Shown here: one piece after another, positions 4,842 to 11,019 of the stretch
How the letters are laid out: each line of letters starts with the position of its first letter
Position numbering within the stretch: position 1 is the first letter of the stretch
Assembly: GCA_016186945.1 (NCBI GenBank)
Contig: JACPKR010000008.1
Span: 3,950-67,949, forward strand
Direction: 5' to 3'
Source of the DNA: Deltaproteobacteria bacterium
GTDB taxonomy: Bacteria; Bdellovibrionota_B; Oligoflexia; Oligoflexales; Bog-1112
DNA length: 64,000 nt
Position numbers and translations under genes: made by a program
The notes under the pieces: model-generated
Databases searched by the model: none
What the model was told of the DNA's origin: nothing
What the model saw: only the letters and a program-made list of their open reading frames with translations

Positions 4842-7800
4842 ATGCAAGAAGATGAAAACAAATTGAGTTTTAAAAGACGAGATTTTGTTCGAGGTCTAGC
4901 AGCAACCGGTGCATTTGTTTCTGCACAGGCTGCTTTTGGTGCACCCATACGTTACTTTAAACCCACGCATGTAGAAAACCCACTCGCCTTCTATCCAAAC
5001 AGGGACTGGGAAAAAATTTACAGGAATCTGTTTGAGCCTGACTCTTCGTTTGTCTTTTTGTGTGCTCCGAACGACACACATAATTGTTTGTTGAGAACCT
5101 ATGTCAAGAACGGTGTCGCTGTACGCATCGGACCCACGTACGGTTATGGAAAAGCGACTGATCTCGACGGCAATAAGGCATCCTCACGATGGGATCCCAG
5201 AATTTGCCAGAAGGGTTTGGCAATGGTTCGTCGCTTCTACGGAGACCGTCGTGTTAAAGCTGCTATGGTGCGGAGGGGTTACAGACAGTGGGTCAACGAT
5301 GGATTCCCGAGAGATGCGAAGACAGGAAAGCCAGACGCTAAGTACTTCGAAAGGGGGAAGGATAAATGGGTGAGAGTCGAGTGGGATGAGGCCTACGACA
5401 TTACCGCACGCGCCCTCGACAATATTACTCGTACCTATTCGGGAAAGCAGGGAGAGTCCTACCTCCGTGAGCAAGGCTATGATCCTGCCATGATTGAAGC
5501 CACGGAGGGTGCAGGAACCCAGACTATAAAATTTCGTGGTGGCATGGCGTTTCTTGGCTCCACCCGCATCTTCGGCCTTTACCGTTTTTGTAACATGCTT
5601 GCTTTGCTCGACTCGAAAATACGAGGGGTGGATGAAAGCAAGGCGGTTGGCGCTCGTGGTTGGGATAGTTATAGTTGGCATACAGACCTGCCTCCCGGCC
5701 ATCCAATGGTAACAGGGGCACAGACGAACGATTTCGACCTCTTCGCGGCCGACCATGCGAATCTTATTCTTGCATGGGGTATGAATTGGATTACCACCAA
5801 AATGCCCGATTCGCATTGGATGACGGAAGCGCGTCTCAAAGGTGCAAAAACTGTTGCCATCACCGTGGAATACAGCGCCACCGCTTCAAAAACCGATGAA
5901 GTTGTTATTATCCGCCCAGGGACCGACCCGGCTTTCGCCCTGGGTCTGGCCCAGGTCATCATTGACAGGAAGCTCTACGACGAAGAGTTCGTGATGAACA
6001 ACACCGACCTGCCGTTCCTTGTTCGCACCGATACTCTTCAACCGCTTCGCCCTGAAGAAGTGATAGAGGGATACAAAGCCCCTGAATTGAAAAGTTTGAA
6101 AGTCTTGAAAAAAGGCGACAAACCAAACAATCTTCAAGACAATATCCAGTCAATTCCTGAAGCCATGCTGGGCGAATTCAAGCCTTTCGTAGTCTTCGAC
6201 AAGAAATCAAAGAAATTAGTCGCCGTCACGCGTGATGAGTACGGTGCCCACTTCATGAAGACGGGAGTCAAGCCAGATCTGAAAGCCAGTCAGAAGGTAA
6301 AAACTGTCGATGGCAAGACGGTGGAAGTCAGGACAATCTTCGATCTTACCGTCGAATACCTGAACAAGAATTTCACGCCCAAGCAAACTTCCAAACTTAC
6401 CAACGCTCCTGAAAAGGCCATCATCTCCCTTGCCACACAGATTGCGAAGAACAAGGAAAAGACACTCTTTGCTTGTGGGATGGGTCCCAATCAGTTCTTC
6501 AACTCGGATTTGAAGGATCGAGCTATTTTCCTCGTCGCAGCGTTGACGCGCAACATCGGCTTTCCAGGAGGTAACGTCGGCAGCTATGCAGGCAATTACA
6601 GGGCAGCATTGATAGGTGGTGAGCCTGTTTATGCGATGGAGGATCCCTTCCACCCGCAACTGGAAAAGGGAGGAAAGGTCAAGCTCGGCAAATTCCTTCA
6701 TTACGAGTCCCTTCACTACTTCAACTACGGTGACAGACCTTTGCGTATAGGCAAAACCCTTTTCACGGGCAAAGGGCATGTACCGACACCGACGAAGGCC
6801 ATGTGGCTTAACAATTCCAACTCCGTCATCGGTAACATCAAGTGGCATTTCGATGTTGTTAACAATACGCTTCCCAAGTTGGAAATGATCGCCTATGCCG
6901 ACTGGTGGTGGACAGGATCTTGCGAGTATTCGGACATCGTTTTTGGTGTCGACAGTTGGGGTGAATTCAAGGCCCCCGACATGTGTGGCTCATGCACGAA
7001 CCCGTTCGTGTCCATTTGGCCACAGACTCCCCTACCTCGTATTTTTGACACAAAGACTGACATGGACATACTTGCTGGTGTGGCTAAGCGTTTGGGAGAA
7101 ATCATCGAAGAGCCACGAATGGAGCAAATGTGGAAATTTGTGTTCGACAACGACGTCCATGAGTACCTTCAACGCATCATCGATCATTCCTTCACGTTGA
7201 AAGGTTACAATATTCACGATCTTGAGAAAAAAGCACAGGAAGGCATTCCCGCTCTGATGCAAAACCGCACCTACCCACGCATTTCATCTTACGAACAAGC
7301 GAAGTCGGAACAACCCTGGCATACGAAATCGGGACGTCTGGAATTCTACAGACCGGAGCAGGAATTCCTCGATAACGGAGAAAACCTGATCATCTATCGC
7401 GAGCCAATCGACTCGACACCGTACGAACCCAATGTGATTGTCGCCCACGAGCACATCGCCATCAGACCGAAGAGTCCCAAAGACTTGGGTCTTGATCCGA
7501 ACGATTTGTCGGTGGAAGTTAGGCAGGTTCGTAACGTCCTCAAAACACCGGACGAAGTCGTCAACTCAAAACACCCGCTGCGGCTGAAACTTTACACCCA
7601 CGTCTACCACACTCCCAAGTACCGGCACGGGGCGCACTCTACACCTGTTGACACGGACTATACGTCTGTCTGGTTCGGACCCTTTGGTGACGTTTACCGT
7701 CATGACAAACGGATGCCCTCCTGCACAGAAGGCTTTGTCGACATCAACCCACTCGATGCCAAGGAACTGAAGCTGGAAGACGGGGACTACGTTTATGTCG

Positions 7801-8318
7801 ACGCGGATCCGGAAGATCGTCCCTACAGGAATTTCAAGAAAGATACGGAGGAATATAAGGTCGCTCGCCTGATGTTACGTGTCCGCTACTACCCTGGCAC
7901 ACCACGAGGGATTGCACGCACTTGGCACAACATGTATGGCGCAACGTTCGGAAGCGTTCGCGCTCACGAAAGTCGCGCTGACGGTTTGGCGAAAAGTGCG
8001 GAAACAGGGTACCAATCGATGTACCGATACGGAAGCCATCAAAGCGCCACCCGTGCCTGGCTGCGTCCCGTTCACATGACGGAAACACTGGTACACAAAG
8101 GTATGTTTGGTCAGGAAATTGGCAAAGGCTTTGCCCCAGATATTCACTGTCCGGTTGGTGCGCCACGAGAAGCATTCGTCAAGTTCACCAAAGCAGAAGA
8201 TGGTGGAATGGGTGGCCAAGGAAAATGGCGTCCTGCATCGCTCGGTTTCCGTCCGACTTACGAAAATGTGGCAATGAAAGAATATTTGAAAGGCAGCTTT
8301 CTTAAAGTGAAAGCTTAA
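4842..8318 (+). CDS. Tat-exported molybdopterin (bis-MGD) oxidoreductase alpha subunit, Nar/Nxr clade of the type II DMSO reductase family
   Basis: 1158 aa. Twin-arginine signal [20 protein letters not shown]0-type motif C74-x3-D78-x3-C82-x39-C122. SWHTD282LPPGHP...ILAWGMNW...MPDSHW...[13 protein letters not shown]...[11 protein letters not shown] is collinear with the E. coli NarG segment around the Mo-ligand Asp. Confidence 0.85.
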
Positions 8319-8332
8319 GGGGAGAAACGAAC

Positions 8333-9473: not shown

Positions 9474-10322
9474 ATGAAATTTCTCGATAGAAAATTGGTA
9501 ATAGGTCTAAGTGTCTTTTACTCACTCAACGTAACAGCAATCGTAGCTCCCTCCGTAAAAGGGGATTTAAGCAAGCCAAGTTTGGATGAGACAATCTGGG
9601 CGACAGCTAAAGAAGAAACCGTTACGCTCATGGCGCAGCCCATGGCTATACCTCGACCCGCAGAGACAGCAACAGCACAGGTTAAGGTAAAGGCGGTGCA
9701 TAACGATTCGTGGATTGCCTTCCGTCTTAGCTGGGAGGATAAAGAGAAAAGTGAAGCGGGCAAACTGGGCGAGTTTTCCGATGCTGTTGCTGTGCAATTT
9801 CCTGTAAAGGACAACAAAAGCCCTCCGCCTGTTTTCATGGGGATGAAAGATAACCCCGTGCATATTTTCCACTGGCGTGCGCAATACCAGATCGATAAGG
9901 AAAAAGGCAAGAGGGAGATGAAGGATATTTACCCCAACATGAATCCAGACATGTACCCGATGGAATTCAAAGACGAGGGCCATCTGACAGGTTTGACGGA
10001 TGAAAAGCGGGAAATATTCTCACACGGCCGAGCCGCAGGAAACCCACAGTCGTACGCAAAAGCAGGTGTGGATGAAATCTTCGCAGAAGGGTTTGGCACT
10101 AGCTCGGTGATCAAGAATGTCGAAGCCGTTGCACATGGAGAATGGCAGAAGAGCGGCTGGACCGTCGTCATTTCCCGTCCTCTGGTGAGAGAAGAAGGCT
10201 CACACCTTAAAGTTGGTGAGGACACCTTTGTCGGGTTCGCTGTCTGGCAGGGTGGCAAAGATGAAGTCGGTTCACGTAAGTCTGTAACCATGCAATGGAC
10301 CCCACTGTCCATCGCAAAATAA
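9474..10322 (+). CDS. heme-b gamma subunit of type II DMSO reductase family enzymes (EbdC/DdhC/NxrC-like)
   Basis: Start moved to ATG 9474 (RBS AAGGAGG at 9462-9468). N-terminal Sec signal/anchor. WIAFRLSWED...AVAVQFPV...HIFHWRA block typical of this subunit family. Position in operon. Confidence 0.65.
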   Translation: MKFLDRKLVIGLSVFYSLNVTAIVAPSVKGDLSKPSLDETIWATAKEETVTLMAQPMAIPRPAETATAQVKVKAVHNDSWIAFRLSWEDKEKSEAGKLGEFSDAVAVQFPVKDNKSPPPVFMGMKDNPVHIFHWRAQYQIDKEKGKREMKDIYPNMNPDMYPMEFKDEGHLTGLTDEKREIFSHGRAAGNPQSYAKAGVDEIFAEGFGTSSVIKNVEAVAHGEWQKSGWTVVISRPLVREEGSHLKVGEDTFVGFAVWQGGKDEVGSRKSVTMQWTPLSIAK

Positions 10323-10332
10323 AGGAACTTCC

Positions 10333-11019
10333 ATGAAAACAGAAGCTAGGGAATTTCTGACCGCTTCGTTGTTGTCTTCTTACCCAGACGCTCAATTCGG
10401 AGACTACGTAGCTGAATTATTGAAAGATGAGCTTTTGGAACTCCCAGAGAGCTTGAGAGCTATGGTGGAGGAATTCATCGCTAGCGAAGACAGCCTGGAC
10501 AACCTTCGTTCGGAATATATCGACCTTTTCGATCGTGGGCGCTCGTCTAACCCCCTGTACGAGACAGAGTATGGTCGGGCAAGAGCGATGGTCAAGGGAC
10601 ACGAACTAGCAGACATCAGTGGATTCTACAAGGCGTTCGGCTTGGAGTTCGGGGTTGACGGCACTCAAAAAGACATGGTCGACCACGTTGCAATCGAACT
10701 TGAGTTCTACGCTCTTCTTCTGCTGAAACAGGATCATCTCGTCAAGGATTCCGAAGGCTCGTCCGTTGTCCTCGATGCGCGCAAGAAATTCCTGCAGGAA
10801 CATCTGGGACGTTTCGTGGGAGCCATCACCCAGCGCCCAGGGGTCAAGGAAAGTCCGTTCTATTCAACGCTTTTCAACTGGTGCCATGATCTGATCCAAG
10901 AGGAATGCAGGGAATTGAGTGTGGAAGTCATCCCAGCAGATTGGATTACCGGTCAGCAGGAGCCTGAAATGACGGACTGCATGTTACGAGGGCCACAGCT
11001 CAATTCGTCAGTAGGGTAG
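10333..11019 (+). CDS. TorD/NarJ-like redox-enzyme maturation chaperone
   Basis: 228 aa. EYIDLFDRG...NPLYETEY...DHVAIELEFYALLL pattern of NarJ/TorD family. Last gene of the operon. Confidence 0.7.
   Translation: MKTEAREFLTASLLSSYPDAQFGDYVAELLKDELLELPESLRAMVEEFIASEDSLDNLRSEYIDLFDRGRSSNPLYETEYGRARAMVKGHELADISGFYKAFGLEFGVDGTQKDMVDHVAIELEFYALLLLKQDHLVKDSEGSSVVLDARKKFLQEHLGRFVGAITQRPGVKESPFYSTLFNWCHDLIQEECRELSVEVIPADWITGQQEPEMTDCMLRGPQLNSSVG

Follow-up and report, generated by a model that had tools for sequence, protein, structure and literature searches.

We find that an intact four-gene operon in the 64-kb stretch of DNA analysed here (the window) encodes, as judged from its sequence, a secreted molybdenum enzyme that converts nitrate and nitrite into each other. 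By alignment and tree, its catalytic subunit sits in the sister clade that holds the nitrite oxidoreductase (NXR) of Nitrotoga together with the periplasmic nitrate reductases of non-nitrifiers, outside the core formed by the Nitrospira, Nitrospina and anammox enzymes. For this host we infer, at a probability of roughly 0.55, that the enzyme runs as a respiratory nitrate reductase through cytochrome c. The operon and its upstream region contain the following features:

4468-4841, no strand assigned: upstream intergenic region with candidate operator sites (putative regulatory role)
4842-11019, forward strand: four-gene operon alpha-beta-gamma-delta, intact
4842-8318, forward strand: alpha (NxrA/NarG-like), 1158 aa, Mo-bisMGD catalytic subunit (KsNXR-A 7b04_B, PF00384)
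4842-4931, forward strand: twin-arginine signal peptide of alpha, RR motif read directly
5061-5207, forward strand: FS0 [4Fe-4S] motif C74-x3-D78-x3-C82-x39-C122, including substrate-coordinating Asn77, aligned to KsNXR-A
5685-5687, forward strand: Asp282, predicted molybdenum ligand, in Y-x4-D-x11-QT, aligned to KsNXR-A Asp275
7617-7619, forward strand: Lys926, by alignment the counterpart of KsNXR-A Lys917 between the two pterins
8333-9463, forward strand: beta (NxrB/NarH-like), 376 aa, no signal peptide (Fer4_11, KsNXR-B)
9474-10322, forward strand: gamma (NxrC/EbdC-like), 282 aa, Sec-type N-terminal signal, no membrane anchor (PF09459 (EB_dh), TIGR03477)
10333-11019, forward strand: delta, TorD/NarJ-family maturation chaperone, 228 aa (PF02613 (Nitrate_red_del), TIGR03482)

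The first three subunits all find full-length matches in the crystal structure of Kuenenia NXR-ABC (PDB 7B04), and the alignment is colinear across the whole of alpha, beta and gamma. Alpha matches KsNXR-A (7b04_B) over its full length at E = 6e-276 in phmmer and also matches PF00384; beta matches Fer4_11 and reaches KsNXR-B at E = 2e-112, while gamma reaches KsNXR-C at E = 7e-25 with its heme-b ligands aligned. For the operon features such E-values are astronomically small and exclude chance. [quoted passage not shown]

The twin-arginine signal KRRDFVRG occupies residues 11-18 of alpha (nucleotides 4872-4895), and AQA (residues 28-30) is the likely cleavage site predicted from the sequence; at least 72 of the 86 clade members carry an RR motif, Tat signals being near-universal among them. 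The FS0 motif reads CAPNDTHNC, with Cys at 74, 82 and 122 and Asp at 78, and in a MAFFT alignment of 91 sequences C74/N77/D78/C82/C122 fall on KsNXR-A C67/N70/D71/C75/C115. The same pattern persists when alpha is aligned with Kuenenia NxrA and with a Nitrotoga-type NxrA (L085, whose N-terminus exactly matches a protein named Candidatus Nitrotoga sp.). Asp282, proposed as the Mo ligand within SWHTDLPP, aligns with KsNXR-A D275 and is invariant (91/91 sequences), and a pairwise phmmer alignment with KsNXR-A places both the FS0 motif and this Asp as MAFFT does. The FS0 ligands C67/D71/C75/C115 and the Mo ligand D275 are seen in the KsNXR-A crystal structure (Chicano et al. 2021, PMC8387239). All 80 sister-clade sequences and all 3 core sequences have the FS0 Asp, where the outgroups have Cys. 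The Lys926 position is Lys throughout the NXR and sister-clade sequences, with the divergent P0126 (Pro) as sole exception, and His in 5/5 outgroups; it is also His in NarG and EBDH (Chicano et al., PMC8387239). The replacement of Cys by Asp and a length near 1150 aa, put forward earlier as traits of NXRs and their pNar relatives, are indeed present, but they typify the whole superclade and therefore carry no signal of nitrite oxidation as such.

The remaining subunits fit the same architecture. Beta has the expected four Cys groups (C35/38/41/45, C154/157/162/166, C187/(Y190)/193/197 and C214/217/229/233), which by analogy with NarH and KsNXR-B would hold three [4Fe-4S] clusters and one [3Fe-4S] cluster. 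The assignment of gamma as a Sec-exported heme-b subunit of the EbdC/NxrC type holds by PF09459, by its N-terminal hydrophobic stretch and by the aligned heme-b ligands; its proposed start, TTG 9408, was rejected in favour of ATG 9474. In the hydropathy profile of gamma, residues ~8-26 form the only strongly hydrophobic stretch, and no transmembrane segment appears beyond this signal. Met122 and Lys269, the predicted heme-b ligands, align with Met155 and Lys305 of KsNXR-C; the Met is kept in 48/48 aligned gamma sequences and the Lys in 47/48, the other one being a gap. PF02613 and TIGR03482 matches bear out the fourth gene as a TorD/NarJ-like chaperone, and delta lies downstream of gamma in 43-51 related loci.

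Where does this enzyme fall among its relatives? The tree of alpha, built by neighbour joining with 200 bootstraps rather than by maximum likelihood, places it within the NXR/pNAR superclade, apart from Ebd/Pcr/haloarchaeal-pNar type outgroups (bootstrap 100%). The core NXR trio is itself supported at 100%, and alpha is split off from this Nitrospira/Nitrospina/anammox core at 86% and 99%. Alpha belongs to a 27-sequence subclade (100% support) from Bdellovibrionota/Oligoflexia and Myxococcota, the groups that also hold the closest relatives. Its signature residues, including Thr319, agree with Nitrotoga/Hydrogenobaculum and not with core NXR. The sister clade spans more than 590 GTDB species (2829 proteins scored as matches), and its hosts are overwhelmingly non-nitrifiers, among them the nitrate-storing and nitrate-respiring Thioploca, Thiomargarita and Parabeggiatoa.

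The closest known system is the NxrABC plus chaperone of the Ca. Nitrotoga fabula type (Kitzinger et al. 2018, PMC6050957), which shares the sister clade, the alpha-beta-gamma-delta order, the Tat signal on alpha, a gamma with a Sec signal and no membrane anchor, an identical FS0 motif, the Mo motif SWHTDL.PG and Thr at the Ks-N312 position. Identities to the Nitrotoga-type subunits are 49% (alpha), 54% (beta), 34% (gamma) and 29% (delta). The Nitrotoga gamma is 90 aa longer, the Mo motif of the Nitrotoga alpha ends in QM rather than QT, and chemolithoautotrophic nitrite oxidation is proven for Nitrotoga but not evidenced in this host. The characterised periplasmic nitrate reductase (pNar) of Hydrogenobacter thermophilus, like that of Hydrogenobaculum, is reported in the same Nitrotoga clade (PMC6050957, citing its ref. 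43), and Thermogutta terrifontis and Ca. Methanoperedens, both nitrate reducers, have been placed in the broader pNXR/Nitrotoga clade (PMC10732223, PMC5673643). The N-terminal ~130 residues of pNar, an OCR-derived fragment and the only part compared, are 53% identical to alpha and share C-x3-D-x3-C and RWEPRIC; the pNar of Hydrogenobacter/Hydrogenobaculum is described as membrane-bound, unlike the anchorless gamma here.

Kuenenia stuttgartiensis NXR-ABC has in common with this enzyme the 3Cys/1Asp FS0, the Asp Mo ligand, the substrate Asn, the inter-pterin Lys and the Met/Lys heme b, yet alpha is only 41% identical to Kuenenia NxrA whereas core NXRs are ~60% identical among themselves. Of the core signatures, TWHGDQAPGH has given way to another sequence here and Asn312 to Thr319; D611 and E1088, at the tunnel entrance of KsNXR, are not conserved, the NXR-T tubule subunit is absent from the window and the host has no anammoxosome. 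Escherichia coli NarGHI is of the same superfamily, with an Asp Mo ligand and a four-cluster beta, but NarG lacks a Tat signal, has a His/3Cys FS0 (H-x3-C-x3-C) and carries His where alpha has the inter-pterin Lys. NarI, a dihaem membrane protein, bears no relation to an EB_dh gamma, and NarG aligns to alpha over just ~130 residues (E ~1e-33). The haloarchaeal-type pNar and the Ebd/Pcr/Ser/Clr group share Tat export, an EB_dh-type heme b gamma and a TorD-like chaperone (DMSO_red_II models); they differ in size (~900-1060 aa), in sequence (25-34% identity), in an FS0 of C/H-x3-C-x3-C without Asp and in His at the Lys926 position, and form the outgroup at 100% support.

Drawing on these homologues, we can sketch how the complex would be assembled and wired. 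Delta would release apo-alpha only once it had received Mo-bisMGD and FS0; after folding, alpha and beta would leave together through Tat on the RR signal of alpha, and gamma would travel separately through Sec and gain heme b. By homology to 7B04, the electron path joins Mo-bisMGD (Asp282) to FS0 (3Cys plus Asp78), next to the four beta clusters and last to the gamma heme b (Met122/Lys269). Since gamma lacks a membrane anchor, the electron-transfer partner of the complex must be a c-type cytochrome of the periplasm. In the nitrate-reducing direction quinol would feed electrons into a bc1- or ACIII-type complex, from which they would reach cytochrome c and then gamma, beta, alpha and finally nitrate, with energy conserved at the quinol:cytochrome c step.

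The rest of the window supplies the following context:

16633-21124, reverse strand: SCO1 and a caa3-type cytochrome c oxidase (COX4, COX3, COX1, COX2-cytochrome c fusion), context only
40469-45663, no single strand: molybdenum-cofactor genes for bis-MGD, context
40469-41584, forward strand: MoeB
41911-42534, reverse strand: MobA
42510-42977, reverse strand: MoaE
43346-44605, reverse strand: MoeA
44602-45663, reverse strand: MoaC/MoaB

The aa3/caa3 oxidase and the mobA-containing bis-MGD cluster were thus correctly recognised at the outset, and the same molybdenum-cofactor genes immediately flank the operon in relatives. The NarK-like transporter is doubtful: it scores 71 bits where the family cut-off is 311.7, and it is syntenic in no relative. 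The window contains no bc1/ACIII complex or free cytochrome c, and thus the proposed donor chain is not seen there; nor does it contain nir, nor, nos or nrf genes, or genes for CO2 fixation. Among related loci, ACIII or cytochrome b modules occur as neighbours, a monoheme cytochrome c lies near 6 of them and near L165, with one heading the operon in the closest relative, and ScdA/RIC repair proteins lie near 5. Rrf2/NsrR-like regulators lie near 10 and Crp/Fnr regulators near 5 of 80 loci; neither type adjoins the operon copy in the window. Upstream of alpha we find a 32-nt direct repeat (4757-4788 / 4790-4821, core GTCGACATTAA, spacing 33) and a 13-nt inverted repeat (4574-4586 / 4597-4609); neither an FNR-type box nor an Rfam element was found in 4468-4841.

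The question that remains is the direction of the reaction, and here the caution of the initial annotation is justified: no known feature separates nitrate reductases from NXRs in this clade, so direction is not decidable from sequence. KsNXR works in both directions in vitro (PMC8387239); with the chemistry reversible in this characterised homologue, direction would be set by the electron-transport chain of the host and not by the enzyme. We favour nitrate reduction because of the host range, the nitrate reducers placed in the clade and the NO/anoxia-type regulators beside relatives' operons. Against it stand the presence of those regulators at just 5-10 of the 80 loci and the lack, within the window, of the donor chain and of nir, nor, nos or nrf genes. 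The converse, in which periplasmic nitrite is oxidised and electrons pass from the gamma heme b through cytochrome c to the neighbouring caa3 oxidase, giving an aerobic host supplementary energy (lithoheterotrophy) or nitrite detoxification, we consider unlikely. It gains from the bidirectionality of KsNXR and from having been proposed for Planctomycetota MAGs with the same clade by their authors (PMC10732223). Two further observations point the same way and count against nitrate reduction: of the functionally characterised enzymes in the tree, the nearest belongs to Nitrotoga, a true nitrite oxidiser; and Thioalkalivibrio thiocyanoxidans ARh2 reportedly cannot respire nitrogen oxides of any kind, although its homologous operon (56% identity) is complete. 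So does the caa3 oxidase with its cytochrome c-fused subunit II, 5.6 kb from the operon, which could possibly act as electron sink if the enzyme oxidises nitrite, together with the full caa3 cluster ~7 kb upstream of the operon in a further relative, L166. However, the COX1 proteins of the window and L166 are just 37% identical, so the linkage is not inherited synteny, and it is rare: across 80 GTDB loci, homologues of the window's COX1/COX2 occur near the operon only in L008, as weak matches, and a COX3 homologue alone in L012, L060, L072 and L080. Moreover, caa3 is a housekeeping oxidase of many aerobes, carbon-fixation or reverse-electron-flow genes are not seen in the window, known nitrifiers contribute no member to the 27-sequence subclade, and Kitzinger et al. 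regard nitrite oxidation as a secondary adaptation of Nitrotoga within a nitrate reductase clade (PMC6050957).

It is less probable still that the resemblance to NXR and nitrate reductase is superficial and that the substrate is chlorate/perchlorate, selenate, another oxyanion or an organic compound (EBDH-type). Alpha does score far below the cut-off of every NCBIfam equivalog, reaching at best 287 of 985 bits with a subfamily model, none of the 27 sequences in the immediate subclade is characterised, and type II DMSO reductases as a family have switched substrate repeatedly. Yet both Asn77, which coordinates the substrate, and the Mo-ligand Asp are kept, and the Asp-FS0 and inter-pterin Lys, common to the superclade, are described only for NXR-type enzymes among the characterised ones considered. 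The characterised members flanking alpha (Kuenenia, Nitrospira and Nitrotoga NXR; Hydrogenobacter nitrate reductase) all use nitrate/nitrite, and the Pcr and Ebd type enzymes, at 25-34% identity, lie in or beyond the outgroup.

The operon is a solid but ordinary find: it adds a member to a family already present across hundreds of species, the sister clade of the classical nitrite oxidoreductases, which is widespread and already recognised, and poorly characterised.

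The region between 4842 and 11019 holds four tightly spaced open reading frames, all on the plus strand, whose products we call alpha, beta, gamma and delta (together, the query):

4842-8318, plus strand: alpha, 1158 aa, with an RR motif at residues 11-18, the motif CAPNDTHNC, and Asp282 in SWHTDLPP
8333-9463, plus strand: beta, 376 aa, matching Fer4_11 and a type II DMSO-reductase beta model
start at 9474, plus strand: gamma, of the EB_dh (PF09459) family
10333-11019, plus strand: delta, a chaperone of the TorD/NarJ family

When we re-read the reading frames, motifs and cysteine groups, every sequence statement of the initial annotation, which had described a Nar/Nxr-type operon with a C-x3-D-x3-C motif, proved correct. 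The N-terminal [4Fe-4S] cluster of alpha (FS0) involves Cys74, Cys82 and Cys122, with Asp78 inside CAPNDTHNC, and the cysteines of beta fall into four groups (C35/38/41/45, C154/157/162/166, C187/Y190/C193/C197 and C214/217/229/233). For gamma, the public gene call starts at the Met at 9474, with a hydrophobic signal-like segment after it, and the mechanical reading frame opens at TTG 9408. Because this signal-like segment is the only hydrophobic one in the hydropathy profile, gamma is free of any membrane anchor. With signal peptides assessed by eye from their motifs and by hydropathy, the Tat signal on alpha, the Sec signal on gamma and the lack of a transmembrane helix in gamma are those of a soluble periplasmic complex.

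All three structural subunits match the nitrite oxidoreductase of Kuenenia stuttgartiensis (KsNXR-ABC, structure 7B04) over their full length, with E = 6e-276 for alpha, 2e-112 for beta and 7e-25 for gamma, and the next-best matches of alpha are much weaker (PcrA 4e-52, EbdA 5e-38, NarG 1e-34). In the solved enzyme, FS0 is held by an unusual set of three Cys and one Asp (C67, D71, C75 and C115 of subunit A), D275 is the Mo ligand, N70 coordinates the substrate, Lys917 lies between the two pterins, and Met155 and Lys305 of subunit C bind heme b; in NarG and EBDH, FS0 has a His/3Cys set and a His takes the place of the Lys (PMC8387239). The aligned equivalents in the query are C74, D78, C82, C122, D282, N77 and Lys926 of alpha, and Met122 and Lys269 of gamma. 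Since these ligand residues are aligned and present, the electron-transfer wire of KsNXR is fully kept. [quoted passage not shown] An identity as NarGHI is ruled out: that enzyme combines an alpha without signal peptide, an H-x3-C-x3-C FS0 motif and the dihaem membrane subunit NarI, whereas the query has an RR signal, C-x3-D-x3-C and an EB_dh gamma, and scores 148/1084 bits with the narG model.

To place alpha we used a neighbour-joining (not maximum-likelihood) tree of 91 sequences and 1149 columns, with Kimura-corrected distances and 200 bootstraps, in which full-length Hydrogenobacter, Thermogutta, Nitrospira and Nitrospina sequences are not represented. Scanning one genome per GTDB species supplied the named relatives, and a 50%-identity library the diverse representatives; the KsNxrA reference was rebuilt from HMMER alignments. 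The five outgroups include Thermincola, Ammonifex and a haloarchaeal homologue from Halorussus, which we take to be pNar-type. A profile search with two approximate, OCR-derived NxrA N-termini yielded only fragments of under 260 aa and nothing at full length from Nitrotoga, and the contig that carries the named Nitrotoga fragment P0428 stops inside the gene. The true Nitrotoga N-terminus (136 aa), when scanned against metagenomes, led to the loci L085 and L086, and the operon of the former serves as our Nitrotoga-type reference: its alpha has the same first 136 residues as fragments that include one named Candidatus Nitrotoga sp. by NCBI. The Nitrotoga, Hydrogenobaculum, Nitrospira and Nitrospina rows of the alignment of Chicano et al. 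were available as OCR text with conserved columns dropped and rows duplicated, and the short N-terminal stretches that we used from them are approximate evidence.

The initial annotation had made placement within the Nxr/pNar clade the test of its reading, and the tree puts alpha there, in a superclade of the core NXRs (Nitrospira, Nitrospina and anammox) and their Nitrotoga/pNar sister clade that splits from the outgroups with 100% bootstrap support. Within it, a core trio of Kuenenia, a Tectimicrobiota protein and the sequence P0123 has 100% support and leaves the query outside. The Nitrotoga-type reference joins the broad clade that holds the query (63%), and the larger grouping shuts out the core, the separating splits having 86% and 99%. 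The identity of alpha is 41% with KsNxrA, 49% with the Nitrotoga-type alpha, 51-52% with a Gaiellaceae group, 44-45% with a SAR202/Dehalococcoidia group, and 55-82% with a very large set of sequences. KsNxrA itself is ~60% identical to the Nitrospira and Nitrospina enzymes and ~40% to those of Nitrotoga and Hydrogenobaculum (PMC8387239); our alpha is at the lower of these levels and is not a member of the core. Signature residues agree with the tree in siding the query with Nitrotoga: the core has TWHGDQAPGH at the Mo ligand and Asn312, whereas the query has a different segment and Thr319, and shares both this Thr and the signature of the Mo-ligand region with Nitrotoga. In OCR-derived and thus approximate text, Hydrogenobaculum has C-x3-D-x3-C in common with the query, and a similar H-T-D-L-P-P segment at the Mo ligand. 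Judged by sequence, the clade of the query is the sister clade described by Kitzinger et al. (2018), which groups the Nitrotoga NXR with proteins that are for the most part uncharacterised and with NARs, putative or proven, among them that of Hydrogenobacter thermophilus (PMC6050957). Inside it, the query falls in a subclade, supported at 100%, of 27 sequences from Bdellovibrionota/Oligoflexia/Bacteriovoracaceae and Myxococcota/Polyangiales; a few are from MAGs that carry the label Planctomycetota or Cloacimonadota.

The C-x3-D-x3-C motif is present in 83 of 83 superclade sequences (80 from the sister clade, three from the core), and all five outgroups have C-x3-C-x3-C; in one divergent sequence, P0126, Glu replaces the Asp. 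Equivalents of Asp78 and Lys926, both present in the query, occur in 83/83 of the superclade sequences counted and in 0/5 outgroups. This distribution makes the motif Asp and Lys926 true synapomorphies of the superclade, and bears out the proposal that an Asp in the FS0 motif marks NXRs and their close pNar-like relatives. The two traits do not distinguish nitrite oxidation from nitrate reduction.

The enzyme family is widespread. A word-indexed search scored 2829 matches among 8000 candidates, the best 120 of which are all at least 69% identical, and the scan of one genome per GTDB species confirmed at least 592 relatives. Among the matches listed, hosts include Planctomycetota, Thioploca/Thiomargarita/Parabeggiatoa, Ca. 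Thiosymbion, Magnetococcales, Methylomirabilota, Rokubacteria, Omnitrophota, Chloroflexota, Nitrospirota other than Nitrospira, and the isolate Thioalkalivibrio thiocyanoxidans ARh2. NCBI already lists this exact alpha protein, under the name 'molybdopterin-dependent oxidoreductase [Deltaproteobacteria bacterium]'; a literature search for NXR-like enzymes in Bdellovibrionota returned nothing specific.

Across 80 GTDB loci the order alpha-beta-gamma-delta is a conserved core. Recurring near it are Moco genes (MoaA 20, MoeA 14, MoaC/B 8, MoaE 8, and also MobA), regulators (Rrf2/NsrR-like 10, Crp/Fnr 5, sigma-54 response regulators 5), ScdA/RIC iron-centre repair proteins (5/80) and a monoheme cytochrome c (6/80), and modules of ACIII-like or cytochrome b type neighbour the operon in a few loci of Planctomycetota and Nitrospirota. 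In the closest relative (locus L165, 82% identity) the order is cytochrome c, a Cys-rich 265-aa protein, alpha, beta, gamma, delta. The Cys-rich protein is conserved in the query's subclade, in 12 GTDB loci as well as L165 and L166, and some of these relatives also carry a monoheme cytochrome c, or a 107-aa reading frame whose N-terminus is Tat-like. All three of these accessory genes are absent from the entire 64 kb of the window, and its neighbouring genes (for a 586-aa secreted protein, pdxH and an MFS protein) are syntenic with no related locus anywhere. The features concerned are:

L165 5076-5873 and L166 9199-10008, also among loci L004-L023: Cys-rich cytoplasmic protein of ~270 aa, no Pfam match, directly upstream of alpha
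11903-13627, plus strand: MFS transporter with a ~180-aa N-terminal extension containing a signal-like segment
4468-4841: intergenic region 5' of alpha, with direct and inverted repeats

The MFS protein had been read as a NarK-like transporter, an assignment with weak support: it reaches 71 bits against a NarK family cut-off of 311.7 and is unlinked to the operon in every relative. The intergenic region contains a 32-nt direct repeat (4757-4788 and 4790-4821, core GTCGACATTAA, spacing 33 nt) and a 13-nt inverted repeat (CTGATTTTCAAAT at 4574-4586 and ATCTGAAAATCAG at 4597-4609), which are possible operator sites of some regulator. No FNR-type box was found upstream of alpha; the search for a Moco riboswitch or any other Rfam element was likewise negative.

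Quantitative comparison with the rest of the window reveals that the operon is far better conserved than its host background, because the relatives that share 77-82% identity in alpha and beta have Moco and oxidase proteins that reach 37-50% against those of the window, and the best database matches of NadE are 52-58% identical and of mixed phyla. Either horizontal spread or very strong constraint would account for this pattern. Many large secreted proteins of the window (including those of 586, 725, 547 and 1067 aa) are without any family match, and, judged from 916-2553 and the window as a whole, the host is poorly sampled in databases.

Some other genes of the window deserve mention. At 22198-23352 on the minus strand, ~1 kb upstream of the caa3 oxidase cluster, lies a gene for a secreted protein of 384 aa that has one CxxCH motif (CAHCH, close to the N-terminus) and the C-terminal end QLHFFF. 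The protein has no Pfam or NCBIfam match and looks like a Cyc2-type fused monoheme cytochrome-porin, which would make it a candidate Fe(II) oxidase of the outer membrane; its AlphaFold model, from the single sequence without alignment, has a mean pLDDT of 36 and is unusable. The ABC transporter at 31863-35846 (plus strand), interrupted by an unrelated 185-aa minus-strand reading frame, has a PBP_like_2 binding protein that is easily taken for the molybdate type; we reject it as a molybdate system, for it is Pst-like (phosphate), with all subunits under equivalog cut-offs. An ankyrin-repeat protein and a dual-specificity protein phosphatase (48390-49370 and 59596-60327, plus strand), both with eukaryote-like, effector-type domains, might hint at a host- or prey-associated lifestyle.

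Homology shows a periplasmic alpha-beta-gamma complex, whose redox chain runs from Mo-bisMGD through FS0 and the four beta clusters to heme b. Delta would assist cofactor insertion, alpha-beta would be exported by Tat and gamma by Sec, and, because gamma has no anchor, the complex would exchange electrons with a periplasmic c-type cytochrome. As to the direction in vivo, we lean towards nitrate reduction, with a probability of roughly 0.55. This direction is favoured because the hosts are mostly non-nitrifiers, including well-known nitrate respirers; because the enzymes of Hydrogenobacter, Thermogutta and Methanoperedens, from this clade or the broader pNXR/Nitrotoga clade, have been assigned NAR function (PMC6050957, PMC10732223, PMC5673643); because NO-/anoxia-type regulators and repair genes adjoin the operon in relatives; and because the window shows no autotrophy genes. 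Of the quinol:cytochrome c donor chain that nitrate respiration would need, the 64-kb window, the part of the genome seen, contains no bc1/ACIII complex and no free cytochrome c.

No sequence determinant of catalytic direction is known, and KsNXR works reversibly (PMC8387239), which lends some weight to nitrite oxidation as well. So do Nitrotoga as the nearest characterised relative and the caa3 oxidase 5.6 kb from the operon, L166 being a second such case. A further point comes from T. thiocyanoxidans ARh2, a cultured, strictly aerobic sulfur oxidiser that reportedly can use no nitrogen oxide as electron acceptor and yet holds a complete operon:

L070 7932-14265: alpha-beta-gamma-delta operon of T. 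thiocyanoxidans ARh2, complete, alpha 56% identical

We nevertheless consider it unlikely that the query oxidises nitrite in vivo. The most specific form of this reading is more doubtful still: a host that is not autotrophic and branches deeply ('deltaproteobacterial' or Bdellovibrionota-like) would have a functioning nitrite oxidoreductase, with electrons passing from nitrite to cytochrome c to the adjacent caa3 oxidase. If true, the large Bdellovibrionota/Myxococcota subclade would be a guild of nitrite oxidisers, lithoheterotrophic or detoxifying, that has gone unrecognised beyond the canonical nitrifiers. Action on another substrate we regard as highly improbable, and the rest of the probability goes to an undecided or condition-dependent direction.

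The enzyme class, its Asp-ligated FS0, the sister clade and its functional ambiguity are all published (PMC8387239, PMC6050957, PMC10732223). The present locus is a clean and complete member from a poorly sampled lineage, with all cofactor ligands intact and nothing unusual for the clade; its one peculiarity is that it is without the accessory genes of its nearest relatives. This locus alone does not settle the question of direction, and T. thiocyanoxidans ARh2 would be a ready organism in which to probe the function of the clade. It is easy to see why this matters: gene surveys assign narG/nxrA-like genes to one of two functions, 'nitrate reduction' or 'nitrite oxidation', and here is a clade that fits neither label confidently. 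Its hosts number hundreds of species, among them predatory and social bacteria (Bdellovibrionota, Myxococcota), which are not usually counted in the nitrogen cycle.
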